A stretch of DNA of 61,514 nt from Acidimicrobiaceae bacterium. GTDB taxonomy: Bacteria; Actinomycetota; Acidimicrobiia; Acidimicrobiales; Bog-793. This document shows, piece by piece, positions 10,609 to 57,930 of this stretch. The position numbers were made by a program, and so were the translations under genes. The notes under the pieces were generated by a model, which was given only the letters and a program-made list of their open reading frames with translations, did no database searches and was not told where the DNA came from. The stretch is taken from assembly GCA_003139355.1 (NCBI GenBank), contig PLIM01000101.1:1-61514 (forward strand), written 5' to 3'. Within the stretch, counting starts at the first letter, position 1, and the number at the start of each line of letters is the position of its first letter.

Positions 10609-10732
10609 ACGCCGTGCCGCAGACGCGTCGGCCCTGCCAGGCGGAACTTCAGGTTCGCCTGACCTTGCCAAAGCTAGCCTCGTCAGCCAGGGGCCCAGAT
10701 GGAAGTGAGGGTGGGGCAGTGGGGATCGAACG

Positions 10733-32235: not shown

Positions 32236-33780
32236 TCACGGCGGCGTCGCAGCTGCGTCACGGCCGGTCGCCGCGAACAGCGTCACGCCTTGGCGACCTG
32301 TTCGTTTCGACTCGTACATCGCGCTGTCGGCCTGAGCGAGAAAGGCGTCGGCACCGAGCGCTCCGTCAGTCCACGCGACGCCGACGCTTGTCCGCAGCTC
32401 GACTACATCGGGCCCGACGTCGACCGTGGCCGTCGTCGCCGCCGCGACGCGCTCAGCGATCCTGACTGCTTGAGCCGAGCTTTCGACTCGCGGGCAGATC
32501 ACAAGGAACTCGTCGCCACCAACGCGACCGACGGCGTCACCTCTTCGCGCGGCGCCACGAAGCCGCTCGCCGGCCGCGGCCAAAAGGCGGTCACCGGCCG
32601 CGTGACCGAACCGGTCGTTCACGGACTTGAATCGGTCGAGGTCGACGAAGATCACGGCGCTTCCCTCACCGGGCGCCTTTGGGGCAGTGGTCATCTGCTC
32701 GACGAGCTCGAGCGACGCCTCTCGATTCAGACATGAAGTGAGCTTGTCGACCGACGCTCTCATCTCGAGCTCGCGGTGAAGTTGAGCACGGTCGGTCACA
32801 TCGCTGAGACATCCGACGGCGCCAGTCACGACGCCGCTCGTGTCAGTGAGCGCGCGCAGGCTCAGCGCGCACACCCGCTCGGTGCCGGAAGCCGGCGGCG
32901 CGTCCGCTCCGGGGAAGCGAAGCCGTACTTCGACGTCGTCGACCGGTTCATCGGCAAGTACCGCGGCGAGCGCCGCCTCGAACACCGGTCGGTCCTCTGC
33001 GACGACAGATGCCGTCAGTGCTTCCACGGTTTCCGCGGACAGGTCGCCAACGATCGTGTGCATGAGATCGTTGGTGAAGGCGACGTGGCCGGCCATGTCG
33101 ATCTCGAACAGACCGATCGGCAGCGCTTCGGACAACCGGCTCAATAGTTGCTCGCGAGATAGGAGCCTCGATATCTCCCGCTCGGCGACCTTCTGCTCTG
33201 TGATGTCCTGTACCAGGAGGCAGATCCTTCTCGCAGAGCCTTGCAGGCCTGCGAGTGGAGCGAGCCTGCCTTGAAACCACCGCAAGCCCGCCGGAACCTC
33301 GAGGCAGTATTCCCATATCTGCGGGCGACCCGTTTCGAAGACCTGGCCAATGACTTCGGCCAAACCGAGGCCGATCTCCTCACTGATGGCCTCCCGGTGT
33401 GTCCGGCCGAGCAATTCACTCCGGGGCGCTGCGAGCAGGGCGTCATTTGTGGTCCAGATCCCGAGGTAGGTGCCATTCTCGTCGAGCTCGAACACGACGT
33501 CAGCGAGAGAGGAAAGAAACGAATGAAGGCGGGCTTCGCTTTCCCTCAGAGCCTCAACGGCCCGCTGAGATTCGCTCATGTCGATCACCACGTCCTGCCA
33601 GAACCGAGAAGCGCCATTGCTCCCACACACGAGCATCGCCTGGTCGTACGCCCACAGCATAAGGCCGTCTGCGGCCACGATCCGGTACCCGGCCGAGCCC
33701 GGTCGGGATTCTTTGCTGTAAGTTCCTCGCTCTCGCGACCGAAGACCGTTGTTTGGCATCGGCGGCTCCCACGAGCGCAC
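32236..33780 (-). CDS. PAS-domain diguanylate cyclase (GGDEF)
   Basis: RVGGDEFLVI with RRGD (I-site) 5 residues upstream. Several PAS modules. The N-terminus begins inside a PAS domain. Confidence 0.9.
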   Translation of the reverse strand: MRSWEPPMPNNGLRSRERGTYSKESRPGSAGYRIVAADGLMLWAYDQAMLVCGSNGASRFWQDVVIDMSESQRAVEALRESEARLHSFLSSLADVVFELDENGTYLGIWTTNDALLAAPRSELLGRTHREAISEEIGLGLAEVIGQVFETGRPQIWEYCLEVPAGLRWFQGRLAPLAGLQGSARRICLLVQDITEQKVAEREISRLLSREQLLSRLSEALPIGLFEIDMAGHVAFTNDLMHTIVGDLSAETVEALTASVVAEDRPVFEAALAAVLADEPVDDVEVRLRFPGADAPPASGTERVCALSLRALTDTSGVVTGAVGCLSDVTDRAQLHRELEMRASVDKLTSCLNREASLELVEQMTTAPKAPGEGSAVIFVDLDRFKSVNDRFGHAAGDRLLAAAGERLRGAARRGDAVGRVGGDEFLVICPRVESSAQAVRIAERVAAATTATVDVGPDVVELRTSVGVAWTDGALGADAFLAQADSAMYESKRTGRQGVTLFAATGRDAAATPP

Positions 33781-33929: not shown

Positions 33930-35324
33930 CTAGCCCGCCACAGCTCGAGCGAAGCGCTCGAAGTTGCCGAGGAACCTGTCAACGTCGGAATCGTCGTGCT
34001 GGACCGAGATGAGCCACTGTTCGGTCTTCCCCCAGGGAGGGAGGAACACCCCGCCGTTGTGCTGGAACAGCCAGTGGGCGTGGTTGTACCGGTCGTCGAT
34101 CTCAAGGAAGTCCCGGTAGTCACGCACCGGCTCGGTCGAGAACGTCACGCAACCCTTCGCCCCGACAGACACCACGTGGGCGGGTAGGCCGGCTCGGGCG
34201 ATCACAGCCGTGAATGTTTGGTCGATCCGCTCCCGCAGGGCGCCGATCTTCTCGTAGGCCTCCTCGGTGGCGACCTGTTCCAGCATGGCCCGGCCCACAG
34301 CGACTGATAGCGCGTTCCCGTTGAATGTCCCGACCATGTTGTAGACGCCGTTGGCCACGTAGCTCATGACCTCCTGCGTGCCTCCAACGGCGCCGAAGAC
34401 CAGGCCGCCGCCAATCGCCTTCGCCAGGCAGACGATGTCCGGCGTGATCCCGTAATATCCCGTGGCCCCACCGGGACCGACGGTGAGGCCGGTCTTGACC
34501 TCGTCGAAGGTGAGCAGAGCCCCGTGCTCGTGGAGCACCTCCTTCAAGCCGGCCAGATAGCCCTCGACCGGCAGGATTATGCCGGCGTTCATCATGATCG
34601 GCTCGATGATCATGCCGGCGACTTGACCAGGGTTCTCCTCGAGCAGGCGCCGGACGCTGTCGACGCTATTGAACGACGCGATCTTCGTGAGCGAAAGGAC
34701 GGCCTCCGGGATGCCCGTGCTGGCGGGTGCCCCGACAGGCCGGTCCGCTGGGCCAATCTCGTCGGCCTCGGGCGTGACCGACACTTGCACCGAGTCGTGG
34801 TGGCCGTGGTAGCAGCCTTCGACCTTGATGATCAGGTCCCGACCGGTGATCGCCCGCATGAGATGGACGGCGTCCATGGTCGACTCCGTGCCCGAGTTGG
34901 TGAAGCGCCACAAGGGCAGGCCGAAGCGATTGCCCAGATCCTCGGCCACGACGATGGCGTCCTCGGTCGGCTGGGCAAAGTGGGTGCCCCGGACGACCCG
35001 GCGGCACACCGCTTCGACGATCGCCGGATGGGCATGTCCGGCCAGGCTCGCGCCGTAGCCGCCGTGCATGTCGACGTATTCGGTACCGTCGACGTCGTAG
35101 ATCTTCGAGCCGGTGCCATGGCTGATCCAAACCGCCTGGGGGCGCGTTATCTGCCAGCTCGAGGTCACCCCGCCGGCGAGGGCGCGCTTGGCACGGCCGC
35201 TCAGCTGCCGGGACCGGGGCTGGCGGCCAACGAAGATCTGCTCCTGTTCGGCGACGACGGCTTCCAACCGTCTGCTGACCTCCTTGCTGGTCGCGCGGGT
35301 GGCTTTGGGCAATTGGACTGCCAT
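33930..35324 (-). CDS. class-III (omega/GSA-type) PLP aminotransferase family protein
   Basis: VDMHGGYGASLAGHAHP and LTFDEVKTG (PLP Lys region). The start is set at ATG 35324 after GGAGAG. Confidence 0.87.
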   Translation of the reverse strand: MAVQLPKATRATSKEVSRRLEAVVAEQEQIFVGRQPRSRQLSGRAKRALAGGVTSSWQITRPQAVWISHGTGSKIYDVDGTEYVDMHGGYGASLAGHAHPAIVEAVCRRVVRGTHFAQPTEDAIVVAEDLGNRFGLPLWRFTNSGTESTMDAVHLMRAITGRDLIIKVEGCYHGHHDSVQVSVTPEADEIGPADRPVGAPASTGIPEAVLSLTKIASFNSVDSVRRLLEENPGQVAGMIIEPIMMNAGIILPVEGYLAGLKEVLHEHGALLTFDEVKTGLTVGPGGATGYYGITPDIVCLAKAIGGGLVFGAVGGTQEVMSYVANGVYNMVGTFNGNALSVAVGRAMLEQVATEEAYEKIGALRERIDQTFTAVIARAGLPAHVVSVGAKGCVTFSTEPVRDYRDFLEIDDRYNHAHWLFQHNGGVFLPPWGKTEQWLISVQHDDSDVDRFLGNFERFARAVAG

Positions 35325-35600
35325 TGGTATCTCTCCGTTCGGGCGGCACCAGTGTCCGCCCGGTGCCGTCGCCTCTTTGCTCCCTTGACCAAACACTCAG
35401 TCAATGAGCCTGGATTTCTTGATGATCAGCAATTCTAGGCCGCCGCGGACACTGACGAGGTGGGCCGCCTCGTCACCTCCAACGCAGGCTAGTGCGACGG
35501 CACGTGCATCTACCTGGCCAACCTGAGGACCGGTGACACGCACGCGCATGGCGGCGCCTTCTGGACGAGCCACGAGCAGGCGGCAGGACCACTGCGGAGG

Positions 35601-36479
35601 TCATCGCGTACCGAACCACTGCTCACGCCACGGGAACAGGTAGCCGTCGGTCACGGCGTTGAGGACCCGCCGGGCGTCCCTGAAGTGCTCGGCCATGTGA
35701 CCTGCGACGGCCAAGGTGGCGGTCACGGGGCTCCCGCTGGCGGCCGTGGCGGAGGCCACCGCCGCCGCGTACCAGCGGGCACCGAGGAACTCGAGGAGGG
35801 CTTGGGCGCCAAGCTCTCCGGCACAGTCGCTTTGCAGGCCCGACACTCGTAGCAGCCGGTCGGTGGCCGCCCCGCTGCTGAGCTCCGGCGGGTGGTCGGG
35901 AAACACGCCCAGCAAGAACAGGGCCAGGTCGCCCAGTCGGCGGTAGATCCCCGGGCGCTCGCCGGCCTCGACGACCTCGAGCAGCTCGGCCAGGCGCCCC
36001 GGGTCCAGCTCGCTGAAGCGCCGGCGGCGCCACCCGCGGGCGGTACGGGTCCAGGTGACCCCGCTGGCAACTCTGGTGTAGGACGCCAGCAGCTCGACGA
36101 GGAAGTAGCGCCGCGCCGGCTCTGAGAGCAGCGCCCGCAACGCCACCACGTCGAACACCGGGATCCGTAGGCGCGGCGCCCGTCTTTCCTCGACGAACTT
36201 GACCGTCTCGAGCGCCGCCGCCGTGCGGTGAACGGCAGTGGCGAACGCCAGGAACGGCGAGACTCCGACCGACACCCGGGCGCGCTCGTCGGGACCGAAG
36301 ACCACCGCCTCCACCGCTGGTGAGCCGAGCGCGACGCTCACCGGGACGTCGCCACCGGCGGCGGTGCGCAACAGTCGCCGGTCTGCGTCGCTCAGGTGCT
36401 GGAGGTAAAGAAGTTCGAGATCGGCCATCTCCGACACCGAAACTACCGACGAGGTGGGACCGGCTGGATCGGCTGTCAC
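35601..36479 (-). CDS. hypothetical protein (292 aa)
   Basis: Long ORF with good coding-like composition. No motif recognised. The start is uncertain (GTG 36479 or ATG 36428). Confidence 0.6.
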   Translation of the reverse strand: MTADPAGPTSSVVSVSEMADLELLYLQHLSDADRRLLRTAAGGDVPVSVALGSPAVEAVVFGPDERARVSVGVSPFLAFATAVHRTAAALETVKFVEERRAPRLRIPVFDVVALRALLSEPARRYFLVELLASYTRVASGVTWTRTARGWRRRRFSELDPGRLAELLEVVEAGERPGIYRRLGDLALFLLGVFPDHPPELSSGAATDRLLRVSGLQSDCAGELGAQALLEFLGARWYAAAVASATAASGSPVTATLAVAGHMAEHFRDARRVLNAVTDGYLFPWREQWFGTR

Positions 36480-36613
36480 CGCTGGACGTGCAGTCCTGTC
36501 ATGGTCTTGCGACCAGTCTCGTGTCGTCAGGAAGCCAGGGTCTTGCCACCGCTTGGTTCACCTGCGCTCGGAATCGGCTTGGTCACGGTCGGCGAGTTGC
36601 CGGAGGACTCCCG

Positions 36614-38782
36614 CTATCGGGGGGCGTAGACCTGGCTCACGTAGTCATCGATCATGCGCGTCGCGCAGTACTTCGGGCCAAGGGTTCGCATGGACGCGCG
36701 TACCCGTTGCAGCCAAAGCTTGGGAATCCCACGATCGTCGCGCTCGTGGAACGACGGCTTCACCTCATCCTCGAGCACGGTGTAGAGGGTCGCGGCATCA
36801 CGCTCGTCCTGTGCGGCTTCATCAGGGTCGACCTCGCCATCGATGCCCCAGCCGTTCGACCCGTCGAAGCCCTCCATCCACCAGCCGTCGAGCACGCTCA
36901 CGTTCAGGCAGCCGTTCAGAGCGGCCTTCATGCCGCTCGTGCCGCTCGCCTCGAGCGGGGGGCGTGGCAGGTTGAGCCAGACGTCGCAGCCGGCGATCAG
37001 GGTGCTGGCGACGCTCAAGTCGTAGTCCTCGATGAAGACCGCGCGATTGTCCACCCCGGGCGAACGCTTCAGCGCGAACATGCGCTGTGCGATCGCTTTC
37101 GCCGCGTCGTCGAGGGGATGAGCTTTGCCTGCAAAGACGAATTGCGCCGGTTGGCCATGATCGAGCAGATTCATGGCTCGGGCCGGATCGTGCAAGACCA
37201 GGTTGAGCCGCTTGTAGGTCGCGAGACGGCGAGCGAACCCGATCGTGAGGAATGAAGGGTCGAACGCGTCGGCTCCGGCCTGCACAAAGTCGATGTCCTC
37301 GCCACGTGCGAGGCGATCGACCACGACCTTCCTCCGTATCATCGCGACCAGATCGCGCCGCTGTTCGCAACGGACCTCCCAGAGCTCCTCGTCCGGGATC
37401 GCCTCGACGCCGGCCCAGACCGCCGGGTCGGATGCGTGCCGCTCCCAGCCCTCGCCAAAGTGGCGGGTCAGTAACGCCCGCATCGGCGGGGCCATCCAGG
37501 TCGGGAGGTGCACAGCGTTGGTGACGTGGCTGATCGGCACCTGGTCGGTCGCGCCGAGCGGGAACATCTCGTGCCACATGCCGCGCGCGACTGACTCATG
37601 GCGCGCGCTCACTGCGTTCGTCGAGCGGGCCGCATGGATCGCCAGGGGTGTGAGGCCGCTGGCCTCGCCCACATCGGCTGGGTGCACGCGGCCGAGCTCT
37701 ACCAGCGCTTCGCGGTCGAAATGCAGCTCGTCGGCCAGCGATCCGAGCACCGCGAGGACCTCCTCGCGGGTATAGGTCTCATTGCCAGCCTGCACGGGGG
37801 TGTGAGTCGTGAACACGAAGCGCTCGCGGCCGCTTTTGAGCGCTGTCGCCAGGTCACCGATGTCGTGGTTCGAAAGGCCGGCCATTCGCGACGCGACAGC
37901 CAGGCTGGCCAGGGCGGCATGGCCCTCGTTGAGGTGGAACAGGGCGGGTGTGATCGACATCGCCTCGAGTGCACGAACCGCACCTACTCCCAGGAGGGCG
38001 TACTGAGCGAGGCGGATCGCGCGGTTGCCCTCGTACAGGCGTGCGCTGACCCAACGCTGCAGGGGGGTGTTCTCGGCGACATCTGCGTCAAGGAGGTAAA
38101 GCGGCACGCGGCCGACATCGGTTCGCCACACGTGCGCGGCGAGGAGACCGTCCCAGACCGGGATCCTGACCGTGAGTGGAGAACCATCGGAGTTACTGAC
38201 GCGCACCACGGGCAGCATCTCGGGATCGGCTTCGATCCAGTACTCCTGTTGCCATCCTGTCCGATCGACGCGCTGGTGCAAGTATCCCCGGCGATAGAAC
38301 AGGCCGACGCCGACGAGCGGCAACCCCTGATCGGACGCCTCCTTCAGCAGATCACCGGCGAGCACCCCGAGCCCTCCCGAGTACACCGGCAGCGACCGGT
38401 GCACGCCGAACTCGGCGCACAAGAACGCGACCGGCCCACTACCGAGGTCCGTCCGGGCCGGGCGAGCAAGGTCGGCATCGAGCACCTGGGCGACCATGTC
38501 GACACGGGCGAGGTACTCGCCGTCGGTTGCGGCCTCAAGCAGCGAACGCTCGGACAGGTCTCGGAGGAAGCGAACGGGATTCTCACCGCTCAGAGAGAAG
38601 CGGTGGGCCCCGAACTGCCGGAAGAGCTCTCGGCCGCCCGGTGTCCACGACCAGCGGTAGTTGTAGGCGATCCGAGCCAGGGAGTGCAGCGACTCCGGCA
38701 GCCGACGCGCCAGGCCTTCGACGGCTATGGCCAGGTCGCTCGTGCCGTCGAGGTGGGGATCGCGATCGCGAAGCACGGTCAT
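36614..38782 (-). CDS. glgP: alpha-glucan family phosphorylase (GT35, short actinobacterial type)
   Basis: YFCAEFG-type region FLCAEFGVHRSLPVYSGGLGVLAGD and PLP-Lys motif EASGTSGMKAALNG. Confidence 0.92.
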   Translation of the reverse strand: MTVLRDRDPHLDGTSDLAIAVEGLARRLPESLHSLARIAYNYRWSWTPGGRELFRQFGAHRFSLSGENPVRFLRDLSERSLLEAATDGEYLARVDMVAQVLDADLARPARTDLGSGPVAFLCAEFGVHRSLPVYSGGLGVLAGDLLKEASDQGLPLVGVGLFYRRGYLHQRVDRTGWQQEYWIEADPEMLPVVRVSNSDGSPLTVRIPVWDGLLAAHVWRTDVGRVPLYLLDADVAENTPLQRWVSARLYEGNRAIRLAQYALLGVGAVRALEAMSITPALFHLNEGHAALASLAVASRMAGLSNHDIGDLATALKSGRERFVFTTHTPVQAGNETYTREEVLAVLGSLADELHFDREALVELGRVHPADVGEASGLTPLAIHAARSTNAVSARHESVARGMWHEMFPLGATDQVPISHVTNAVHLPTWMAPPMRALLTRHFGEGWERHASDPAVWAGVEAIPDEELWEVRCEQRRDLVAMIRRKVVVDRLARGEDIDFVQAGADAFDPSFLTIGFARRLATYKRLNLVLHDPARAMNLLDHGQPAQFVFAGKAHPLDDAAKAIAQRMFALKRSPGVDNRAVFIEDYDLSVASTLIAGCDVWLNLPRPPLEASGTSGMKAALNGCLNVSVLDGWWMEGFDGSNGWGIDGEVDPDEAAQDERDAATLYTVLEDEVKPSFHERDDRGIPKLWLQRVRASMRTLGPKYCATRMIDDYVSQVYAPR

Positions 38783-38794
38783 CGGTCTGTGAAC

Positions 38795-40873
38795 CTAATG
38801 GTTCGGCGGGACGAGCTCACATCCGACGAGGGTACTCGGCCACTCGACCGACGCCGCCTTGGCCAGGATGCTGAGTGCACCCAGTGCCGCGACCGTCTCC
38901 TCCGACACCGAAGCGTCGCGTAGCACAGCGAGGGCGGCACCCATCGTGTCGATATCGCGAGACTGCAGTGGAGCGGCGGCGGCGGCGAGCGCTGCAAGCA
39001 CCGCTGCGTCATCGACCTCTGCTGTACGTGTCCGCAGGCTCGCCGTAAGACAGCAAAGAGCGAGGAGCGGGTCGGTGTCGGCACTTCCCGTCAGGCGGGC
39101 GGCGCCGACGAGCGCAACGACGTCGGAGCCGGCTTCGGCCAGGCTCGTATCGCGCCAACGATCTTCCCCGGTGACACGGCTGCGAGCCACGGCACCCACG
39201 GCCCCAGTGCACTCGGCTTGGATCTCGACCACGGTGCGCCGCAGTGTCGGCGCGTGCTCGACTACGACCGTGCCACTTGCGCGACCGTCGACCACCTGGA
39301 CGTCCCGGGAGGTGACGGTCCATGCTCCGCGCCGTGCCGAGGAACGAACCGTCCCGGCTACCAGCTCGAGCGCGAACGCCCCGGCGACCGCCGTCGCGTC
39401 GACTCGGTGAGGCTTGACCAAGCGGGCCCAGAGATCGCGGCCGGTGAGCGCCGGATCCAGGTTCGATCTCACGGCGTCGAGGCGCCCGAGGAACCCTCCA
39501 GTGGCGTCGAGGTCGAGCACCCGCTCAGCGGTATCGAGCACGACGGCCGCGTGCCGCAGTGACAACAGGGTCTCGACTCCGGTGACCTCGGCAAAGAACC
39601 ACGCGCAGCTCGTGAACGCCGAAAGAAGGTGGCTTTGCAGTTCGAGCAGTTCGAGCGCGCGCGTCGTTTCGGCATCTGAACAGGCGCGGCCCGCTCGTCT
39701 CGACACGAACGCTTCGGGCGCCTCTGTGCCCGCCAGCACGACGCCGTAATCGACAAGCGCGGCAAGGGGGTCGCCCAACAATGGTCGCACGGCAGCTGCG
39801 ACCGGCTCCGCGAGGGTCGACCGTAGCCAGTCGAGCGCCTCGCGAAGCGGCGCCCGCCAGGACTGGTCCCATCCGGGCTGCGAACCCGTCGTGCAGCCGC
39901 AGTCCGCGCGCCACCGCTCCACGCCGTGCGCGCAGCTCCACGAGGACGGCGTGACGAGCTCGACCTCCCAGGTCGGTGGATGCTCCCGCAGCCACGCGCC
40001 GATGTTGGTGACCTCGACGCTCTCGGACCGCAATTCACGAGCCGCCCAAGCCAGCGCCATCTCGCCGAACTGCTGGTGATGCCCGTATGTCTCCCCGTCG
40101 GAAACGATCGCTATCAGCTCGTCGGCGCCATCTGCCGAGGCGGCAGCCCGAATGGCGCCCGTGAACGCGGCGCCATCGCGCAACAGTCCTCCGAACGCGA
40201 CGCCACGCGACAGCGGGCCGTGCCCGAACACCACCGTCATCGACCCACCGTCGGGCAACGCCACCAGGTACGGGCGGGTCGGGTCGATCTGTTCCCCGCT
40301 CACGTCGAGCCAGTCGCCCCCAGGCGCGCGCACGCGACGCGCCTGCTCCGGCATGAGAACGGTGAAGCCGATGCCGTGACGGGCGAGAGCGGCGAGCGTG
40401 TCCAGGTCAACTGCGGTCTCCGGCAGCCACATGCCTTCGGGCGGAGAACCGAAGCGCGCCTCGAAGTCGGCGACGCCCCAGGCGACGAGCACGTCGCGTT
40501 CCTCGGACGAGGCAAGCGGGAGGATCACGTGGATCGCCGGTGCCGCAAGCGCTGCTCCACTGGGTCGCCCGTCCGCTCCCCGAGCCGCGGCACGCACGAC
40601 GGTGTCGACATCGGGCGCATTGCTCACCAGCCAACTGTGGAGCGTCCCCACGATGTCGAAGCTCGCGATCGCAAAATTGTCACACGACGCATGCAGGCGT
40701 CGGTCGTCCGCCAGCACTGCGGCGACCGTATTGGGCCGGTAGCACTCCGCGGTGATCCGCTGGTTCCAGTCGTGATATGGGAACGCGTTGAGCTCAGGTT
40801 CCACGACGTCGAGCCAAGCGTCGGCGCGCGGTGGCTGGTAACAGTGGAGATGGAAGCAAACCGCGAGCGTCAT
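38795..40873 (-). CDS. glycoside hydrolase family 57 protein with a long C-terminal extension
   Basis: GH57 regions FHLHCYQP, MWLPETAV (nucleophile Glu region) and SDGETYGHH (acid/base Asp region). 692 aa. Confidence 0.85.
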   Translation of the reverse strand: MTLAVCFHLHCYQPPRADAWLDVVEPELNAFPYHDWNQRITAECYRPNTVAAVLADDRRLHASCDNFAIASFDIVGTLHSWLVSNAPDVDTVVRAAARGADGRPSGAALAAPAIHVILPLASSEERDVLVAWGVADFEARFGSPPEGMWLPETAVDLDTLAALARHGIGFTVLMPEQARRVRAPGGDWLDVSGEQIDPTRPYLVALPDGGSMTVVFGHGPLSRGVAFGGLLRDGAAFTGAIRAAASADGADELIAIVSDGETYGHHQQFGEMALAWAARELRSESVEVTNIGAWLREHPPTWEVELVTPSSWSCAHGVERWRADCGCTTGSQPGWDQSWRAPLREALDWLRSTLAEPVAAAVRPLLGDPLAALVDYGVVLAGTEAPEAFVSRRAGRACSDAETTRALELLELQSHLLSAFTSCAWFFAEVTGVETLLSLRHAAVVLDTAERVLDLDATGGFLGRLDAVRSNLDPALTGRDLWARLVKPHRVDATAVAGAFALELVAGTVRSSARRGAWTVTSRDVQVVDGRASGTVVVEHAPTLRRTVVEIQAECTGAVGAVARSRVTGEDRWRDTSLAEAGSDVVALVGAARLTGSADTDPLLALCCLTASLRTRTAEVDDAAVLAALAAAAAPLQSRDIDTMGAALAVLRDASVSEETVAALGALSILAKAASVEWPSTLVGCELVPPNH

Positions 40874-40879
40874 TGCCGC

Positions 40880-43800
40880 TCACACGCTCGAGCGCAGGAC
40901 GACAAGTGCGAGCGGCGGCAGCACGAGCAAGGCACTGTGATCGCGGCCGTGCCAGGGCGTCTCTGTCGTGTCGACCGAGTCGGGCAGCGGGTAGCCACTG
41001 CCGCCGAACTCCGACGCGTCGCTATTGACAAGCACCTTCCAGCGGCCGGCGTGCGGCATGCCGACGCGGTAGGCCTCTCGCGGCACCGGGGTGAAATTGG
41101 CGACGACCACGAGCACGCCGTCACCGCCGTCGCGCCGTTCGTAGCACAGCACGCTCTGCGCCCTGTCTTCGCAGTCGATCCAACCAAAGCCACTGTCGGC
41201 AAGGTCGTCCCGGTACAAGGACGGTTCGGAGCGGTACAACTCGTTGAGCCGGCGTACCCAGGCGGAGACGCCTTGGTGAGCGGGTGAGTTGAGCAAATGC
41301 CAGTCCAGGCTCGTATCGTGGCTCCACTCCGATCGCTGGCCGAACTCGCCGCCCATGAAAAGCAGCTTCTTGCCCGGTTGGGTGAACTGGTAGCCGTACA
41401 GGAGCCGGAGATTCGCGAACTTCTGCCACTCGTCGCCGGCCATGCGGCTGAGCAGTGAGCCCTTGCCGTGCACGACCTCGTCGTGCGACAGCGGCAGGAC
41501 GAAATGCTCGCTGTTGGCATAGACCGACCGGAAGGTCAACCTGTCGTGATGCCAAGGCCGGTGAATGGGATCGCGGGAGAAGTAGTCAAGCGTGTCATGC
41601 ATCCAGCCCATGTCCCACTTGAGGCCGAAGCCGAGCCCGCCTGCGTCGACCGGCCGGGAGACCCCCGGCCACGCTGTGGACTCCTCCGCGATAGTCATGA
41701 CATCGGGAAACGACCTGTACACCTCGGTATTGCAGGCTTGGAGCATCTCGATCGCCTCGAGGTTCTCGTTGCCACCGTAGCGGTTCGGGACCCACTCCCC
41801 GCTCTGGCGTGAGTAGTCGAGATACAGCATCGAAGCCACCCCGTCCATGCGCAGCCCGTCGGCATGGAACCGGTCGAGCCAGAAGCACGCGCTGGATATC
41901 AGGAAGCTGCGGACCTCACTGCGGCCGAAGTTGAAGATCCAGCTGTTCCAGTCGGGGTGCACTCGCTGGCGGATGTCGGCGTGTTCGTAGAGATGAGTGC
42001 CGTCGAAACTCCCCAACGCGAAGGCGTCGGAGGGAAAGTGCGACGGCACCCAGTCGAGGATCACGCCGATGCCGGCCTGGTGGAGCGTGTCGATGAAGGC
42101 GGCAAAGTCGTCCGGCGTGCCATAGCGGGCACTCGGGGCGAAGTAGCCCGTGATCTGGTACCCCCATGAGCCGTAGAACGGATGCTCCATGACCGGCAGG
42201 ATCTCGACGTGGGTGAATCCGTGGTGCTGGACGTGGTCGATGAGCCGAGGAGCAAGCTCCGCGTAGCTGAGCAAGCGGCCGGGCTCCTCAAGCACGCGTC
42301 GCCACGAACCGAGATGCACTTCGTAGGTCGACATCGGCTTGTCAAGGCGCTGGATTAGGCCGCGGCTGCGCATCCAGTCGGCGTCGAGCCATTCATGGCA
42401 AGGTTCCCAGACCACCGATGCGGTCTTAGGCGGCTCCTCGTTGGCGAACGCGATGGGATCCGCCTTGTCGAACTCGCCACCACCGAGCCGCGACAGCAAT
42501 CGGTACTTGTAGCGCATCCCGGCGGTGACGCCAGGAAGGAAGCCTTCCCAGACCCCCGACTCGCCGTGCGTCGAAAGTGGGTGTCGCGTGCCGTTCCAGC
42601 CGTTGAAGTCGCCGACCACGGCAACTCGTTCGGCATTCGGCGCCCAGACGCCGAAGAAGACTCCGGATACGCCGCCGACGGTCATCGGGTGGGCACCGAG
42701 CTTCTCGTACAGGCGGAAGTGCCGCCCCTCGTTGAACAGGTAGGCATCGGTGGAGTCGAGCCCGCTGACTCCCATTACCGTCTCGGCCGAGCGCGCCAGG
42801 CGACCGACGGAGTCAGAAGAGACCCGCCCGCGCTGGCTCCGAAGGGGTGCCAAAGCGTCGTGCACCGCTGGATCATCCACGATCTGCTCCAAAGTGGCGC
42901 TCGTCCGGCGCTGCCAGTTGGGTCGTTCTGTGCTCGTCCCCGGCAGGTTGGCCGATTCCGGTTCGCCGAGCAGGTCGTCAAGCTGCACGAACACAAGCCC
43001 GGCATCGCTGCGAGCCAGCGCGGCATGGACGGCGGCGAGTACAGCGACGGGCGCACCAGCACCGTCGGGCGCGTCGCGTTCGTCTGACCGGAACTCCTCT
43101 TGAGCTAACAGGGAAAGCCGCTCACGCAGGTGCGCCCGCTCGGTACGCTCCTCGCCTACCGAGGTCGCGCCCAACTGGCCGCACTCGACGCGCTCGTCGA
43201 TGTCACGACCGCTCCACCAGCCGGCGAATGTGGGCAGGTCGTGGGTCGAGAAAGCGGCGACACAACCAGCCGGCGGCGCCTCTAGCACTGGCTCGCCGGC
43301 GCCGCGAATGGAGAACTGCGCGACGTACGAGCGCCGAATGCCACTGCGCTGCATCCCCTCCCGCACTTCGTCGTCGACCGTGCCCAGGTCCTCGCCGATG
43401 ATGTCCGCGTGGTGGCGCTGGGCCTCGATCGCAACGACGGCAAGCTGCTCTTCGAATGGCATCTTCACATAGACGCCGTCGCGCGGCTCGGCGCCGTCGG
43501 GTATCCAGAACAGCCTTTGCAAGCCCATCACGTGGTCGATGCGCAGCATCCCAGCGACGCGCAAGTGGTGCGCGAGCGTGGCGCGGAGCTCCGCGTGACC
43601 GTTGCTACGGAGCGCTTCGGGACGCGTGGGAGGGAACCCCCACGACTGGCCTTGCGCGAAGAAGCCGTCCGGCGGCGCGCCGACCGACATGCCCGCCGCG
43701 TACTGGTCGCGATGACGCCAGACGTCGTAGCCGTAGGGGTGGATGCCCACAGGCAGGTCGAGTGCGAGGACTTGGCCACGCTGCGCAAGCCGCTGCGACA

Positions 43801-45016
43801 GCTCCGCCATCTGCTCGTGAACAATCCACTGGGCGTAAGTGTGACAACGCTCACTGACCGGGTCGACGTCGCTCCACCTCAGCAGACCGCCGCGCAGCGG
43901 CCCTGGCCAGCTGTGCCAGTTGACTCCGAAGCGATCGGTCGCCGCACGAAAGCGCGCGTAGTCGACGAGCTCGGGGCGCTCGAACAGGAAATGGCGTAGA
44001 GCTGTCTCACGACCCGTGTGCGAGCGCCCAACGGCAGTCGAGAGCGCTCTCAGGACCTTGCGCTTGGCTGCGGTCACGGCGGCACCGTCCACGATCGAGC
44101 CGTGCACCCAGGCGGCGCGCTGCTCTGCCGCATGTGGGCCAGAGATGAGTGCGTGCGCTGCCGGAGACCAAGCGAACTCTGGCACACGTTCCACGTCGAT
44201 CCAGCGTTCGTGCCAGAAGTGGCGGCTCACCGGCAGGTAGGGACTCGCCTCGAACGACTCCGGCCCGAACCCGGCGAGCAGCGGGAGTGTCGCGACCACA
44301 CTCGCTTGCTCCCTGGCGGCCAAGCGCGCGAGCTCGTCAAGGTCACTGAGGTCGCCCGATCCCCAGCTGTGAGCAGAGTGCAGCGAGAAAAGCGGCGCAA
44401 TGACGCCGAAGGCTCGCCAGTCCCTGGCAAAGCGCCCGCGGGCGCCCGTCACCGGCGCCACGATGACCGTTGCAGTACCTGTGCGGCCTCGCACACGCAC
44501 GGTGAAGCTGTGGTAGCCGGACTCCAGGATGGCCGGTAGCGGTACGGCGCCTCGGTACACGTTCCGGCCGTTGATGCGCTCGGTCGACAACGAGGCGAGA
44601 TCGTCGCGCCGGATGCGCCATTCGACACGGCCGCCCTCTTCGGATTCGATCGCGCACTCCAGGTCCGTGTCGGCCTCCCGCAGCCTGACGGGGATCTCGC
44701 CGCAGGACGTGTCGCTGAGGACGGCCACCGGTTCCACGATCTGCTCGACGCGCGCGCTGCGACGGCTGCGGAGCAGACGGGCCGCGTCGCTGGCCTGCCC
44801 GATCGGCGTGCCGAGCGCGTTCAACACCGCGAAGAGCGCCTCCGGATCGGCACAGCGACGCACGCCCGCGCCGTCCAGGTACTCGAGCACCACGCCGGAG
44901 TCGGCAGCGAGGGCCCGCAGCGTCGCCGGGATCTTGTGAGCCGTTGCCACGGTCGGTGTCAGTCCGACCAGGTGATGAGGTTGGGGACGCACGGGTCGGT
45001 GAGGGCGGGATGGCAC
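40880..45016 (-). CDS. fusion protein: 4-alpha-glucanotransferase (MalQ, GH77) + 1,4-alpha-glucan branching enzyme (GlgB, GH13)
   Basis: Uninterrupted 1378-aa ORF. MalQ motifs: [17 protein letters not shown] and STHDLPT. GlgB motifs: [49 protein letters not shown] and [13 protein letters not shown]. The start is uncertain (45016, or GTG 44950). Confidence 0.9.
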
Positions 45017-47517
45017 GGCAGGACGCGGGCAACGAGATCGGCGTCGGTTCCGGTCTCTTGCGGCACCTGCACGCTATAGCGGGCGACGCCGCCGCGCCAT
45101 TCTTCGAAGCGGGTGGCCAGCGGGTGGGCCTCGCCAAGATTCGGCGCGACCCAGAGCTGCACGGTCACATCGGAGGGCTCGAGGGAACCGAGGTCTACGA
45201 CGATCTTGGCCCGCATTGCACCACCTGGAGCGACCGTGACGTCCTCGATGGAGACGCGAATGGCGGGCCAAGCGCCGCGTAGTCGTTCAAGAGCCAACGC
45301 AAGAGCGCGGGCGCGCGCGCCGCGGTTTGCCGCGAGCCAGCGCGCGCGGTGCGAGCCTGGCAGGTAGAAGGACTCGACGTAGTCGCGCACCATCCGGTGC
45401 ACGCTCCAGGTCGGGGCCAGGCTCGCCATCGACTGGCGGATCGAGGCCAGCCAGGCACGGGGCAAGCCCTGGGCATCGCGGTCGTAGAAGCTCGGAACGA
45501 TCTTGTACTCGAGCAAGTCGTACAGCGACTCGGCATCGCTCGCGTCCTGTGCGTCGAGGTCCTCGTAATGTTTGCCCGTTCCGATGCACCAGCCGATCGG
45601 CGCCGCGCCCGGATCGGCGTCGTTCCAGACCTCGTCCCACCAGCCATCGAGCGTGCTGAAGTTCAGGGAACCGTTCTCGCCAGCCTTCATGCCGCCAACG
45701 CCGCACGCCTCCAGCGGTCGCCGCGGAGTGTTCAGCCACAGGTCGACGCCCTGCGCAAGGGCCCTGTCCATCGTGAGGTCGAAGTCCTCGATGAACACGA
45801 CTCGATGCTCGAATCGGTGTCGCTGCGCGAACTCGACGACTTCGCGTAGCAGCTGCTTGCCGAACTCGTCGTGGGGATGGGCCTTGCCGCCGAAGATGAT
45901 CTGAATGGGACGGTCCGGATCGCCGAGGATACGCGCGAGGCGGTCGGGGTCACGCAGGAACAGCGTGGGGCGCTTGTACGCGACGAATCGACCGACGAAG
46001 CCAATCGTGAGCGCATCGGGGTCAAGGAGCGCATTGGCGGCCGCAAGACGCTTTGCGCCGGCGCCGCGGCGCGCAAGCTGCTCTTTGCGGCGGACCCGAG
46101 TGAACTCGATGAGCCGGGCGCGGGCGCGGCACCTTGCATTCCAAAGCGCCTCGTCGTCGACCTCGATCAGCGGCTCCCACGAGTCCGGTGAGCCCGGCAT
46201 CGTCCGCCAGTGCGAACCGAGCTGACGGTCGAGGAGCTCCTCGATCTCGGTGGATGTCCATGATCTGAAGTGGACACCGTCGGTGACGTGGCCGATCGGC
46301 ACCTCGTTCAACGGCAGCCTTGGCCAAAGGCCGCCCCACTGGTCCCGAGTCACCCTGCCGTGCAACCGGCTCACTCCGTTGGCGGCACCAGCGAGCCGCA
46401 GTGCAAGCACCGTCGGGCAGAACGAGTCAAGTGGGTCATCAGGTCGGTAACGGCCGAGTGAGCTGAGCGTCTCGAGATCGATGCCGAGCAGTTGGGCGTA
46501 GGGAGCGAGGTACCGATTGGCCAGCTCGGCCGGGAAGTAGTCGTGCCCGGCAGCGACCGGGGTATGTGTCGTGAACAGCAGTCCAGGTGCCGCGGCAAGG
46601 CGCGCTTCGGCGAATGAGAGCCCGTCGCGTGCCATCACCAGACGAATTCGCTCCAGCGCGGCGAAGGCGGTGTGCCCCTCATTGAGGTGCGCCATTTCGG
46701 GATCGTGACCGAGCGCTTGAAGCGCACGGACACCACCGATACCGAGAACGATCTCTTGTTGGATACGCCTCTCCCAGTCACCGCCGTAGAGCCTTGCGGT
46801 GATCTCGCGGTCGGTTCGCCGGTTCTGCCTGACGTCGGTGTCGAGCAGGTACAGCCGGACCCGTCCGACAAGCACGGTCCATACCTGGGCAACTACGTTG
46901 CGCCCAGGCAGCGGAACCTTGACCCGCACCGGACGGCCCATTGCGTCGCATGCCACCTCGACGGGCAGCTGCTCGAAGTCGAGAACCTCCCACGACTCCT
47001 GCTGCAGCCCGCGATCGTCCAGCCACTGGTGCGACGTCTCGCGGTAGAGCAGACCAACTCCGACGGCCGGAACGCCAAGTGCGCTCGACGACTTGAGGAA
47101 CTCGCCGGCGACGGTACCAAGGCCGCCCGCGAACACCGGTAGTGAGTCCGTGAGAGCGAACTCCGCGGCAAAGTATGCAACCTCGAACTGGCGGTCCTTC
47201 CGGTGCGTCTGCTGGAACCAGGTCCTGGTGCGCTTCGCCTCGTAACGGGCTGCGCCATCGACGACAACCGCTGCGCGCTGAGCGAGATCCGGGTCGGACG
47301 CAAGCCGCTCCTCTACAGCGGCGCGTCCGAGACCGATCAGCAGGCGACGAGGCCATTCGAGCGCAGAAGGCCCGGCCGTCGGATCGAGGCACGCGAAAAG
47401 GGCGCGCGTGCGCGCGTGCCAGGTCCATCCCAGGTTCGTCGCCACACCGAGGAGGTCATCGAACCCTACGACTTGGCGCCGCGATCTCTTCAGAGTGGAC
47501 CGACGAGCCGTGATCAC
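44959..47517 (-). CDS. alpha-glucan family phosphorylase, long paralogue (852 aa)
   Basis: [25 protein letters not shown] and a variant PLP motif [14 protein letters not shown]. First gene of the glucan operon. Confidence 0.9.
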
Positions 47518-47614
47518 ACACCTCCTTCACGCCATGATCGCACGGGAGGATCTGGCGTGCTGGCGCGCACGCAATGCCGGTTCTGTCGCCTGGTCGCCTC
47601 GCCGGGCACCCCGG

Positions 47615-48898
47615 CTAAGCGGTCTGATCCGGGCCGGCCACGTCGATTCTCGGAGAGCCGCGCCTTTCGAGCCGAACCGAGGCGAGCCGGTGCCGGGAGA
47701 GCAGCGCCCCGCCGGCGGCGGCCACCAAGCAGGACAGTGCGCCCACAACCATGCCGATCCGGGCGTCGGACTCCTCGATCACCAAGCCGATCACCGGCCC
47801 TCCGATCGGCGTGGTTCCCTGAAAGCCGAGCTGCCAGAGCGACAAGACTCGGCCGCGCATGTTGGGAGCCGCCGAGAGCTGGATCGTCGAGTTCCCGATG
47901 GATACGAACGACACGCTCGCCCAGCCGACAAAGAGCAGCCCGAAATAGGAGAGCCAAAGCACAGGAGCCAGGGCGGTGAACCCGATCGCGAGCCCGAAAC
48001 CTATGGCGGAAATGATCATCGGCCTGATCCCGATCCGGCCCCGGGCGGCGGTCAGCAGGCCGCCGGCGACCGCCCCGAGGCCCATCGCCGAGGTCATGAA
48101 GCCGTAGGCCTCCGAGCCGCCATGGAAGGTGACCTTCGCGAGGACCGGGAGCGAGACCTGGAACTCGTAGGCGAGCATGCCGACAAGCCCCATCATCACG
48201 AGCGGCACCGCTATGTCTGTGGTGTGGGCGGCGTAGGCGAAACCTTCCCGCAGCTGGCCCTTTGCCCGGGGTTCCGGCTGGGTCGGCCGCAGGGCCGAGC
48301 GGTTCATGACCAGCAGTGAGGTGACGACCGCCGCGAAGCTGGCCGCGTTGGCCAGGAAGCAAACCCCGTCGCCGACCGTGGCGATGAGGATCCCGGCGAT
48401 CGCCGGCCCGATCGCACGGGCGGCGTTGCTGGTCACCGAGTTCAAGGTGACGGCGTTGCGCAGCTCCTCCCGCCCCACCATCTCCCGGACGAAGGCCTGT
48501 CGGGAGGGGTTCTCGAAGGTGTTGTTCAGGCCCAGCACGACAGCGAGGACGCAGACCTCCCACAAGTGCACCACGCCGAGCACGGTGAGAAGCCCGAGCG
48601 TGAGCGCCTGGAGGCCCATGCAAGTCTGCAACAGGACCATCAACCGGCGCTTGTCCACCCGATCGGCGATGACGCCGCCGTAGGAGGCAAATACCAGGAC
48701 GGGGAGGGTCTGGAGTGCGACGACGTAGCCGAGGTCGATGGCCGAGTGGGTGAGGGTGAGCACCAGCCACGCCTGGGCGGTCGTTTGCATCCAGGTTCCC
48801 ACGAGGGAGATCGACTGCCCAGTGAAGTAGAGACGGTAGTTGTGGACCTTGAGCGACGAGAAGGTCTTCCGGCCGAGCCGGCTCAGACGGCGTCTCAA
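47615..48898 (-). CDS. MFS transporter
   Basis: 427 aa and polytopic. The TTG start overlaps the MarR stop (TTGA). Confidence 0.88.
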   Translation of the reverse strand: MRRRLSRLGRKTFSSLKVHNYRLYFTGQSISLVGTWMQTTAQAWLVLTLTHSAIDLGYVVALQTLPVLVFASYGGVIADRVDKRRLMVLLQTCMGLQALTLGLLTVLGVVHLWEVCVLAVVLGLNNTFENPSRQAFVREMVGREELRNAVTLNSVTSNAARAIGPAIAGILIATVGDGVCFLANAASFAAVVTSLLVMNRSALRPTQPEPRAKGQLREGFAYAAHTTDIAVPLVMMGLVGMLAYEFQVSLPVLAKVTFHGGSEAYGFMTSAMGLGAVAGGLLTAARGRIGIRPMIISAIGFGLAIGFTALAPVLWLSYFGLLFVGWASVSFVSIGNSTIQLSAAPNMRGRVLSLWQLGFQGTTPIGGPVIGLVIEESDARIGMVVGALSCLVAAAGGALLSRHRLASVRLERRGSPRIDVAGPDQTA

Positions 48899-49383
48899 GG
48901 GCGACTGCCTTTGAGCTGCTCGGCGATTGCCTCGAGCACCGGCAGGCCGGCACGCAGCGCTGCCTGCTCGCCGGCAGGGAGCTTGGCGAGCAGCGCGCTC
49001 AGCGAGTCGCTGCGCTCCGCACGGATCCGCTCGTGCAGCCGCTTGCCGGCCGGGGTGGCCGCGACGAGTGCCGCGCGGCGGTCATCCGGGTCGCTCCGCC
49101 GAACGATGAGGCCGGAATCCTCGAGGTTTCGGATGACACGGGAGAGCATGCTCGGGTTCATCCCCTCCGCTCGGGCGAGATCAGACAGGCCCACCGGTCC
49201 ACGCCGGACGGTGGTAGCAAGCACGGTCGTCTCCACGGAGGTCAGCGCTGCACCCGCCCTGGTCCGCTCGAGCCGTCGGAAGAGCCGGGCGATAACCATG
49301 CGGAGGCGGACGGACACGTCCTCTTCGGCTGCTGTCGCCTCGAGCTCCGGCCGGAGCTTGATCGTGCCGCTCTCTGCCGGCAT
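48895..49383 (-). CDS. MarR-family transcriptional regulator
   Basis: wHTH segment LSDLARAEGMNPSMLSRVIRNLEDSGLIVRRSDPDDRRA. The start is set at ATG 49383. The longest ORF reaches 49470. Confidence 0.88.
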   Translation of the reverse strand: MPAESGTIKLRPELEATAAEEDVSVRLRMVIARLFRRLERTRAGAALTSVETTVLATTVRRGPVGLSDLARAEGMNPSMLSRVIRNLEDSGLIVRRSDPDDRRAALVAATPAGKRLHERIRAERSDSLSALLAKLPAGEQAALRAGLPVLEAIAEQLKGSRP

Positions 49384-49646
49384 TCTCCACGCCCTTCCCG
49401 TTGCCGCTCCCAACCCGATGCTCCACAGTTTTGCTTGCCGGACAGCAACTATTATACGGCGCGAGCTCACCGGCGACGCGCCCGTGCGGAAAAGGTGGAG
49501 GACTGCGCGGAGCTTGGTTCAGATGCACCCGTGCTGTCCTGCTGGGCTCGGCGGTACTGAATCCCGTCAGCCGGTCATCGAGCAGCCGCTGCGCCGACGG
49601 CCACACGCGTCGGTGTCCACGGCAGTCTCGTCGTCGGGACCCGGTT

Positions 49647-50575
49647 CTATCCCCAGTTCTCGTGCGGCCATAGCACCGGTGCCGCGGGGGTCACCTCGAA
49701 CGCGTTCGGGAGCAGCGCAACCTGGCCCGCCCCGGTGACGACCTGCGCCGCGACGACCCCGGCAACCTCCGGCACGATCACCTTCACGTGGGTGTCGGTG
49801 ACCGCCGCGTCGGGAGCCAGGTGGGCCGTCAATTTGCCAACCGTGACAGTCGAAGGGGTCGCAGGGTCCGTGCCACCGCCCAGATTGGATCCGTAAATGG
49901 TGATCCTCTCGCCCGGAGGACCCTTCTGCGGGGTGACCGCCGTCACAGTAAGCGGAGCCGAGCTACCGGCTTTCTTCGCAACGTAGGCCGCGGCCGAGGC
50001 CGACGTCAGTCCCACGAGCGTGTCGGGCAGTACAGGAAGCTTGACGGGGCTGTGGACGAAGGCGACGAAGAAGGCCAGCAGAGCCACGAGGTTGAAGACG
50101 AAGTACTGGCGTCCCCCAGGTCCAGGTTGTCCTTGTCGTCGGATATGACCTCCTTCAGCGCCTCCCTCAGTTTCTTTCGTGGCGAGCTGGCGGGAGTCTT
50201 CGCACTGGTCCCGTTTGTCACCTGGCCCGATGTGATGGCCTTCGAGCCGACCGCCGCACCCGCCGGAAAGCCGAGGAGGAGGAGGTAACGCGGATCGAGT
50301 GTGCTCTGCGGGTAGGTGAAATCGTGGAAGACGATCACCAGCAATGCGAAGGCCAGCGCTACGGTCCACAGCGCGAGCTGAACCTTGGATGTCGACACAC
50401 GATCGTCCGAGCCGAGGACGGCATACCAGAATCGCCTGACCTTCTTCTCGTGGTCGTCCCTGTTCTTCGTGCCGCACAGCTGGTAGAGCAGGCCCAGGAA
50501 CGCGAGCAGGCAGACCGCCGCCAGACTGTACGACCACGCCAGGTCGAGTCCCTGGGGTGCCACGCCGGAGATCAC
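49647..50575 (-). pseudogene. polytopic membrane protein with a C-terminal IPT/TIG-like domain, interrupted by a 1-nt frameshift
   Basis: The N-terminal part sits in the frame of ORF 50006-50575 (coding-like to ..DKDNLDLGD). The C-terminal part sits in the frame of ORF 49647-50654 (from QYFVFNLVALLAFF.. to the Ig-like LTVTAVTPQKGPPGERITIYGSNLGG). The switch is near 50106-50117. Confidence 0.6.
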
Positions 50576-57598: not shown

Positions 57599-57930
57599 GA
57601 CGTGTGTTCCTCTGATCGGACGAAACCAGGCCCTGTACGAACGGGAGTCGCAGGAACCTGGCTCCCGCGCCCCGGAGAGTCGATCGTAGAGGGACGAGCC
57701 CGCCGGCGTGGCGATCGGAGGCCTCCCCTCGAGACACCGGCGCACCCGGCCCCGGGACCCGAGCCGGCCAGTGACACGCCACTCTGGCTCTCGCCAGGGC
57801 CGTCGCCTACGCGAATGACCAGGAAACTCCGTCGCCCAGCTGGTCGCCCCGGTGGATCTAACAAGGAACGAATCGTGATGCCGCAGGCTACCGTTGTCGG
57901 TGCATCGAAACAGACAAGCGGGGAGGACGT

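Follow-up and report, generated by a model that had tools for sequence, protein, structure and literature searches.

The contig PLIM01000101.1 of an Acidimicrobiaceae bacterium (assembly GCA_003139355.1; the 61,514 nucleotides of positions 1 to 61,514 are referred to here as the window) carries a single gene in which the coding sequence of a MalQ-type 4-alpha-glucanotransferase (GH77) runs on into that of a GlgB-type branching enzyme (GH13), and thereby raises the question of whether such a gene is genuine, how it arose and what its product does. We consider it likely that this gene, malQ~glgB, encodes a bifunctional alpha-glucan transferase of about 150 kDa, whose two tethered modules re-lengthen alpha-1,4 chains and branch them in the course of glycogen and maltodextrin turnover. 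The main outcomes of the analysis are the derivation of the gene from a conserved malQ-glgB pair, the repeated fusion of the two genes, in both orders, and a near-constant companion gene encoding a GH57/DUF3536 protein.

An uninterrupted malQ~glgB reading frame

The malQ~glgB frame lies on the minus strand of the window. Its longest version, at positions 40880-45016, runs from a GTG at 45016 to a TGA at 40880-40882 over 1378 codons, and is the single open reading frame (ORF) described by the initial annotation, which left its strand unstated. The likely start of the gene is the GTG at 44948-44950, which gives a gene at 40880..44950 (minus strand) of 1356 codons plus the TGA stop, and hence a product of 1356 aa, as judged from the ORF list, the translation and public gene calls. 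The start was moved to this position because a start at 45016 would create a 58-nt overlap with the upstream phosphorylase gene, and because the public calls of a near-identical protein (P0001; 100% identity by BLASTP, with two residues differing beyond the start residue) begin 22 codons downstream of that GTG, 8 nt past the TGA of the upstream gene.

The fused protein was found on at least eight public contigs, and four such contigs, each taken from a different ENA assembly, match the window with 99.93-99.96% identity and zero gaps across 16-24 kb. Within the fused gene, these four independent contigs differ from the window by eight substitutions and no indels and, used in place of raw reads, they reveal no stop or frameshift at the junction. 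Homologues that are 70-89% identical keep the frame and a constant inter-anchor spacer of 65 aa, with substitutions inside the spacer, and the frame also persists in more distant homologues, to 44% identity, whose inter-anchor distances are 51-178 aa. In all, more than 110 full-length homologues retain the frame and every catalytic residue checked. A missed stop, a frameshift or a chimeric assembly might still be invoked for such a long ORF, and fusions with a dead partner are on record, since the branching domain of the chlamydial GlgA-GlgB fusion is reported to be inactive (PMC11046441). Furthermore, in the closest named Acidimicrobiaceae bin, the uncultured metagenome-assembled genome (MAG) MFD03323.bin.2.48 (L010:6407-10250), the GH77 part of the orthologue is split across two overlapping reading frames. 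This split is a lone exception, probably due to an indel introduced in the sequencing of that MAG and not to a true pseudogene. Frameshift and mis-assembly were rejected on the agreement in frame of the four indel-free contigs and on the conservation of the frame to 44% identity, and a dead-domain fusion on the invariance of the catalytic residues in both halves, so that an artefactual frame or a pseudo-enzyme half appears extremely improbable.

Two complete enzyme modules

The N-terminal module is, by sequence, a long-form MalQ and a predicted 4-alpha-glucanotransferase. It opens with the N-terminal region typical of long-form MalQ, which aligns with Corynebacterium glutamicum MalQ (5b68) from residue 14, and continues with the MalQ_N beta-sandwich domain (PF21226; positions 44453..44734, minus strand, residues 95-188 in the 1378-aa numbering; Pfam 50.6 bits, cut-off 24.1). 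The GH77 catalytic domain follows at 42899..44395 (minus strand, residues 208-706 in the same numbering; PF02446, 316.9 bits, cut-off 25). In the NCBIfam search, the malQ equivalog TIGR00217 scored 258.6 bits against a cut-off of 205.65, which places the module in GH77. In this family, catalysis depends on an Asp nucleophile, a Glu acid/base and an Asp that stabilises the transition state. This triad is intact, with D472 in LRIDH, E520 in GEDLG and D571 in THD (1356-aa numbering; codons verified on the minus strand at 43535-43537, 43391-43393 and 43238-43240, respectively), and is invariant in 113 of 113 full-length homologues.

The C-terminal module is a predicted short-form GH13_9 branching enzyme, located at 40892..42748 (minus strand) and devoid of the N1 (GlgB_N) domain. 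The GlgB equivalog NF003811 matches residues 757-1375 with 954.7 bits (cut-off 741), covering profile positions 2-618 of 619, and two further GlgB models also score above cut-off (NF008967, 913.2 bits against 577; TIGR01515, 861.1 bits against 464). The module has the layout of GlgB, with a CBM48 domain (Pfam CBM_48; 42449-42703, residues 772-856 in the 1378-aa numbering), the GH13_9 catalytic barrel next to it (Pfam Alpha-amylase), a C-terminal beta domain (Pfam Alpha-amylase_C; 40892-41182, residues 1279-1375) and conserved regions I-IV. Codons were verified, all on the minus strand, for the region I Asp (42053-42055) and His (42038-42040), the nucleophile Asp (41843-41845), the acid/base Glu (41684-41686) and the region IV His-Asp pair (41480-41485), and the corresponding residues D966, H971, D1036, E1089, H1156 and D1157 (1356-aa numbering) are invariant in 113 of 113 full-length homologues. 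The Pfam search for GlgB_N (PF22019) gave no match in the window protein, and the alignment to Mycobacterium tuberculosis GlgB (3k1d) opens at chain residue 101, where N1 ends; the module is therefore a short-form GlgB, which does not exclude its membership in GH13_9. The presence of a complete GH77 MalQ and a complete GlgB in one polypeptide, as claimed by the initial annotation, is hence borne out by the Pfam and NCBIfam scores and by nine intact catalytic residues, and every motif it quoted is present in the ORF translation.

The two modules are joined by a spacer at 42749..42898 (minus strand), in agreement with the linker that had been placed at about 42751-42841. The spacer is made up of the C-terminal tail helix of MalQ, a flexible core at 42788-42823 and the N-terminal leader of GlgB. 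An AlphaFold2 model of residues 167-1356, built from a 70-sequence alignment, has a mean predicted local distance difference test score (pLDDT) of 89.5 and a predicted template modelling score (pTM) of 0.60. Its sole internal segment with pLDDT below 50 comprises 12 residues (model residues 544-555), which are those encoded at 42788-42823. Judged by pTM, the model suggests that both modules fold well and are linked by a short flexible tether, with a mutual orientation that would not be confidently fixed. Since pTM stays at 0.60 despite a mean pLDDT of 89.5, the model favours a proximity effect over a physical channel.

Operon and gene neighbourhood

The fused gene is the second of four in a minus-strand operon with intergenic gaps of 8, 6 and 12 nt. 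The first gene (44959..47517, minus strand) encodes an 852-aa alpha-glucan phosphorylase of the maltodextrin type (Pfam DUF3417, Phosphorylase and GlgP_C; TIGR02094, 746 bits), and a ribosome-binding site, GAAGGAGG, is located at 47521-47528, directly 5' of its GTG. The third gene (38795..40873, minus strand) encodes a 692-aa protein with Pfam GH57 and DUF3536 domains, its ATG lying 6 nt past the stop of the fusion, and the last (36614..38782, minus strand) encodes a second alpha-glucan phosphorylase paralogue of 722 aa (TIGR02094, 702 bits), its ATG lying 12 nt past the stop of the GH57 gene. Both flanking phosphorylases are of the maltodextrin-phosphorylase type (NF041129-like, TIGR02094). 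Promoter and terminator scans over 35300-49800 yielded nothing above shuffled expectation.

Gene neighbourhoods were compared across 80 named-genome loci, which are a biased sample, the junction-spanning alignment having yielded GlgB-side peptide patterns only, and provide examples rather than frequencies. The identical four-gene order is present in relatives at 55% identity (L005, L091), and the retention of both phosphorylase paralogues at this distance suggests that they have distinct roles. In these two loci, a divergent gene of about 280 codons encoding an NTP_transferase domain adjoins the second phosphorylase gene (L005:18183-19028, L091:18294-19133), and the window has no equivalent. 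Neither this gene nor the 292-aa ORF past the operon in the window was matched by an NCBIfam model.

Elsewhere, fusions adjoin the genes of both known biosynthetic routes. In L090, a fusion of the shorter type (type B) directly follows glgA (TIGR02095, 420.7 bits) and glgC (TIGR02091, 435.7 bits) and precedes a GH57/DUF3536 gene, and in L009 a 1555-aa fusion directly follows glgE and treS-mak. Given this adjacency, the fusion fills the glgB slot of both routes. The ORFs scanned in the window include no glgA, glgC, glgE, glgX or treS-mak, the 61.5-kb window being a small part of the genome. Unfused clusters of Acidobacteriota, Chloroflexota and further MAGs (L015, L017, L049, L071 and L082) run in the order malQ, glgB, treZ (TIGR02402, above 730 bits) and GH57/DUF3536, and treZ is missing wherever malQ and glgB are fused. 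Through treZ, the unfused clusters connect MalQ and GlgB with the production of trehalose from glucan.

The remainder of the window encodes a second storage-compound enzyme, a WS/DGAT wax-ester/triacylglycerol synthase, together with kdpA-kdpB-kdpC and a KdpD-type sensor, two large PAS/GGDEF signalling proteins (the 953-aa one with an EAL-like motif, recognised by eye) and a GH3 glycosidase. As a single list, the coordinates of these other genes are 1820-3253 (minus strand), 6219-11920 (plus), 29266-32127 (plus), 32236-33780 (minus) and 55421-57940 (minus).

Distribution and origin of the fusion

A first protein search returned 958 proteins at E ≤ 1e-50. The architecture of the window protein recurs in at least 120 clusters (at 90% identity): GH77 and GlgB-type domains are present in each of the 120 best-listed clusters, and the GH77 module is N-terminal in all 113 full-length clusters among them. 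In a library of representatives at 50% identity, about 22 of the best 150 matches carry both modules (at least about 20 clusters). The taxa with fusions comprise Acidimicrobiia, Acidobacteriota, Zixibacteria, Myxococcota, Ignavibacteria, Gemmatimonadota and Legionella, and the source names among the fusion clusters include Acidimicrobiales, Acidobacteria, Zixibacteria, Myxococcales, Polyangiaceae and 'Deltaproteobacteria'. Single fused ORFs were verified with hidden Markov models in named MAGs of Ignavibacteria, Acidimicrobiia, Myxococcota and Gemmatimonadota, and a cluster look-up added fusion proteins from a Legionella sp. and a Microthrixaceae MAG. Among the matches listed, an uncultured Acidimicrobiaceae MAG ranks first of the named genomes, with 76% identity across the junction, which places the window in Acidimicrobiales.

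Unfused malQ and glgB genes, adjacent on the same strand and in the order malQ->glgB, occur in MAGs of Acidobacteriota, Chloroflexota, Dehalococcoidia, Thermomicrobiaceae, Planctomycetota and Thermoanaerobaculia, among others. Unfused MalQ terminates in '...PNWRRKARYTLE...L..V..LRR...*', unfused GlgB starts with '...LT.DD.YLFNEG.H.RLY.KLGAH', and the spacer of the window protein corresponds to the former tail and the latter leader joined together. The fusion is a conserved, adjacent malQ->glgB pair that has become one gene, which fits the loss of the stop codon and of a short intergenic gap.

The two modules have also been combined in other ways. GH77 and GlgB fusions come in at least four architectures, which include GlgB preceded by a short MalQ that lacks MalQ_N (1189-1247 aa, as in Legionella and Microthrixaceae), MalQ joined to a long-form GlgB with GlgB_N (1430 aa) and the reverse order, with GlgB followed by GH77 (P0130, P0137 and P0138). 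Since these architectures are distinct, MalQ and GlgB have been joined several times and in both orders, an argument that draws on the architectures and not on a tree. A neighbour-joining tree of GlgB modules assigns the window protein to a clade that comprises 75 fused sequences, and recovers 16 all-fused clades interleaved with unfused sequences; this tree is crude, being based on p-distances and devoid of support values, and was not used for counting fusion events. Other GlgB fusions were seen in the representative library (P0130, P0133, P0136, P0137, P0138, P0188 and P0264), comprising the reverse-order GlgB-GH77 proteins, GlgB with a second GH13 enzyme, a maltokinase-cap domain with GlgB (as in NCBIfam PRK14705) and two GlgB-containing proteins of 2610 and 2684 aa.

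The GH57/DUF3536 partner

A GH57/DUF3536 gene directly follows the fusion in almost every locus examined. The succession of fusion and GH57/DUF3536 gene is seen in loci of Acidimicrobiia, Zixibacteria, Ignavibacteria, Myxococcota and Gemmatimonadota and in one 11-Mb genome. Counting also the loci in which the gene follows malQ-glgB-treZ, the association spans at least seven phyla (L005-L008, L011, L014, L015, L017, L036, L049, L071, L082, L090 and L091). The family itself is very large, with 7940 matches at E ≤ 1e-20 among 8000 candidates scored. In a 39-sequence alignment, the GH57 nucleophile Glu (E152, in WLPE) and the Asp D259 (in DGETYGHH) are invariant. A PDB sequence search with the GH57/DUF3536 protein of the window returned no relative. 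Its AlphaFold2 model (pLDDT 91.8, pTM 0.91) has as nearest solved fold the GH57 maltose-forming amylase of Pyrococcus sp. ST04 (4cmr; template modelling score 0.53-0.60), followed by GH57 amylopullulanases, a 4-alpha-glucanotransferase and branching enzymes. In the DUF3536 part, at residues ~312-327, the same 39-sequence alignment contains an invariant W-S-C-x-H-G ... C-G-C pattern (C314, H316, C325 and C327), which looks like a putative metal-binding site.

A DUF3536-containing GH57 enzyme of Pontibacter, which carries the ETYGHH motif, has been characterised as a weak hydrolase and 4-alpha-glucanotransferase, acting on amylose and on DP18 (DP, degree of polymerisation), that shortens branches and is mostly hydrolytic, and its gene cluster also holds GlgB, TreS, GlgE, TreZ, TreY and MalQ (PMC11206854). 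The near-constant presence of such a gene beside the fusion points to a poorly characterised third player of uncertain role.

Discussion

In the reading that we favour, both modules of the window protein would be active and their activities coupled. The MalQ module would disproportionate alpha-1,4 chains, so that short maltooligosaccharides give rise both to longer chains and to smaller products, until chains reach branching length, at a DP of roughly at least 8-10 (PMC13515694). The GlgB module would then cut sufficiently long chains and re-attach the segment through an alpha-1,6 bond. By holding both active sites near one glucan particle, the tether would allow MalQ-lengthened chains to be branched at once, and the new branches would in turn supply MalQ with more non-reducing ends. 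The operon would act as a glycogen/maltodextrin turnover unit, in which outer chains and glucose-1-phosphate are converted into each other by the phosphorylases, GH57 shortens chains by trimming or hydrolysis and MalQ~GlgB builds the resulting fragments back into branched polymer, turnover being the presumed direction of flux in vivo. The flanking maltodextrin-phosphorylase-like genes give the locus a catabolic or turnover signature, and the fused protein, like its family as a whole, probably serves as the branching enzyme of the cell, beside whatever chain-elongating system the genome has.

Several lines of evidence are consistent with such coupling. MalQ and GlgB have been fused in at least four architectures, reverse order included, which argues for a functional link between them. 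In vitro, a separate GH13 branching enzyme and a GH77 4-alpha-glucanotransferase consume oligomers, elongate chains to about DP10 and then branch them, a two-enzyme cycle that its authors called alternating and polymerisation-like (2026 review, PMC13515694, section 3.1). The proposal of the initial annotation that elongation feeds branching thus holds in principle, as far as separate enzymes in vitro are concerned, and its further suggestion that this happens without a nucleotide-sugar synthase does not match the gene context of the family, in which fusions stand beside glgA-glgC or glgE/treS-mak. The strict channelling it envisaged is likewise not supported by a short flexible tether and a pTM that remains low next to the pLDDT.

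Four points weigh against the turnover reading. With 61.5 kb of the genome in view, an elongating enzyme or a second glgB or malQ would lie beyond what can be seen. A branching enzyme that shares its operon with two phosphorylases could equally be taken to serve synthesis, breakdown or a cycle of both. The lack of a fixed interface is read from pTM, in AlphaFold2 output that came without an inter-domain error map. Finally, the literature searched yielded no enzyme assay of a natural MalQ~GlgB fusion, so that the two activities and the benefit of tethering are predictions.

The synthetic option would make the fusion the core of a nucleotide-sugar-independent glycogen route, starting from maltooligosaccharides, or from glucose-1-phosphate through reversed phosphorylases, and replacing GlgC/GlgA or GlgE in this organism. 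Its chemistry is reasonable. The content of the operon, limited to phosphorylases, MalQ~GlgB and GH57, would suit this option, as would the lack of glgA, glgC, glgE and treS-mak among the window ORFs scanned. Escherichia coli is reportedly able to form glycogen from maltose via MalQ without GlgA. This MalQ-driven glycogen formation is most evident in the absence of MalP, and the two MalP-like phosphorylases of the operon would normally drain the dextrins made by MalQ. Separate 4-alpha-glucanotransferase and branching enzyme do sustain polymerisation-like growth from oligomers in vitro (PMC13515694), but related fusions adjoin glgA-glgC or glgE/treS-mak, so that the fusion is no general substitute for these routes: in L090 and L009 these genes lie immediately upstream, contrary to what would be expected if the fusion family replaced glgA/glgC or glgE. 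The absence of glgA and glgC from a window that is a small portion of the genome says little, and on balance we consider a replacement route unlikely. A more ambitious version, in which, in these Acidimicrobiales, the four genes form a self-contained glycogen cycle without ADP/UDP-glucose or maltose-1-phosphate, and GH57/DUF3536 is the obligate third component of a widespread and unrecognised MalQ-GlgB-GH57 module, would have one phosphorylase elongate primers from glucose-1-phosphate, GH57 supply or trim those primers and MalQ~GlgB turn short chains into branched polymer; this we regard as quite unlikely.

At the opposite end, the locus could be mainly degradative, with MalQ acting as the transferase half of debranching on phosphorylase-limit glycogen, where it would transfer stubs and let the phosphorylases and GH57 complete the breakdown, and GlgB as a co-regulated passenger or a weakly active module. 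The malP-malQ couple is a classical catabolic pair, and the genes flanking the fusion encode two phosphorylases of the maltodextrin-phosphorylase type. The characterised relative of the GH57/DUF3536 protein is mostly hydrolytic (PMC11206854), and the unfused clusters carry TreZ, a glucan-consuming enzyme. A passenger would not, however, be expected to be as strongly conserved as the GlgB module, with invariant catalytic residues and 955 bits to the GlgB equivalog, and the fusions hold the glgB slot of biosynthetic operons; a mainly degradative role is accordingly very unlikely in our judgement. Turnover by a protein that both lengthens and branches chains remains the reading that we prefer.

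The window gene reveals no new kind of system. The rarity implied by the initial annotation is contradicted by at least 120 clusters at 90% identity in many phyla and by the JGI/IMG product name borne by many of these proteins, 'alpha-1,4-glucan:alpha-1,4-glucan 6-glycosyltransferase/4-alpha-glucanotransferase', which NCBI annotates simply as 'GlgB'; NCBIfam has no model for a MalQ-GlgB fusion. Furthermore, a malQ-glgB fusion was remarked upon in one sentence on the glycogen gene cluster of Neisseria sicca (Chem Rev 2024, PMC11046441, section 3.3, Figure 4). The fusion is hence already widespread, as the initial annotation had allowed it might be; as for a biochemical description, none was found in the literature searched, in which the Neisseria remark was the only mention of such a fusion. 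Biochemical characterisation of the fusion would be new, if incremental. As a natural single-chain amylomaltase and branching enzyme, the protein is a ready-made candidate catalyst for the production from maltodextrins of highly branched, slowly digestible alpha-glucans, which are now made with two-enzyme mixtures (PMC13515694). In addition, the recurrence of the fusion across architectures, in both orders and in many phyla, constitutes strong 'Rosetta-stone' evidence for a MalQ-GlgB functional pair in bacterial glycogen metabolism.

Comparison with known systems

The closest solved relatives of the N-terminal module are the MalQ proteins of E. coli (PDB 4s3p, E 2.7e-63) and C. glutamicum (PDB 5b68, E 2.5e-61). 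Like them, the window MalQ has a GH77 domain with the Asp/Glu/Asp triad, an N-terminal extension and a MalQ_N sandwich; unlike these stand-alone enzymes of about 700 aa, its C-terminal tail runs on into GlgB. The C-terminal module matches the GlgB structures 8zqa, 3k1d (M. tuberculosis), 6joy and 1m7x (N-terminally truncated E. coli enzyme) with E-values of ~1e-214 to 1e-223, and shares with them CBM48, the catalytic barrel, the C-domain and conserved regions I-IV. The GlgB proteins of E. coli and M. tuberculosis carry N1, whereas the window module lacks it and has the MalQ module in its position.

Curated fusions in which MalQ is joined to other alpha-glucan enzymes include MalQ-TreY (NF011077 / PRK14507, 1693 positions) and GlgX-MalQ (NF011082 / PRK14510). 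The MalQ half of the window protein aligns to positions 7-733 of the former and 697-1409 of the latter, with 457 bits (cut-off 2148) and 343 bits (cut-off 2511), respectively, so that the window protein is a member of neither and its partner enzyme differs. N. sicca likewise has a malQ-glgB fusion, which, compared here by description only, is accompanied by amylosucrase and glgX (PMC11046441), unlike the two DUF3417-type phosphorylases and the GH57/DUF3536 protein of the window. Because at least four distinct fusion architectures exist, common descent of the two fusions is not to be assumed: the Neisseria protein could be of type A or independent, for instance of the shorter type B seen in Legionella. 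The window gene is a further member of a catalogued fusion family; its two enzyme families and the way they cooperate had been recorded before, as had the fusion. The nearest parallel in applied work is provided by the starch-modification ensembles of a Rhodothermus branching enzyme and a Thermus 4-alpha-glucanotransferase, which combine the same two chemistries to reach a higher branch density as separate proteins mixed in vitro (PMC13515694); unlike that mixture, the window fusion has its two modules naturally tethered.

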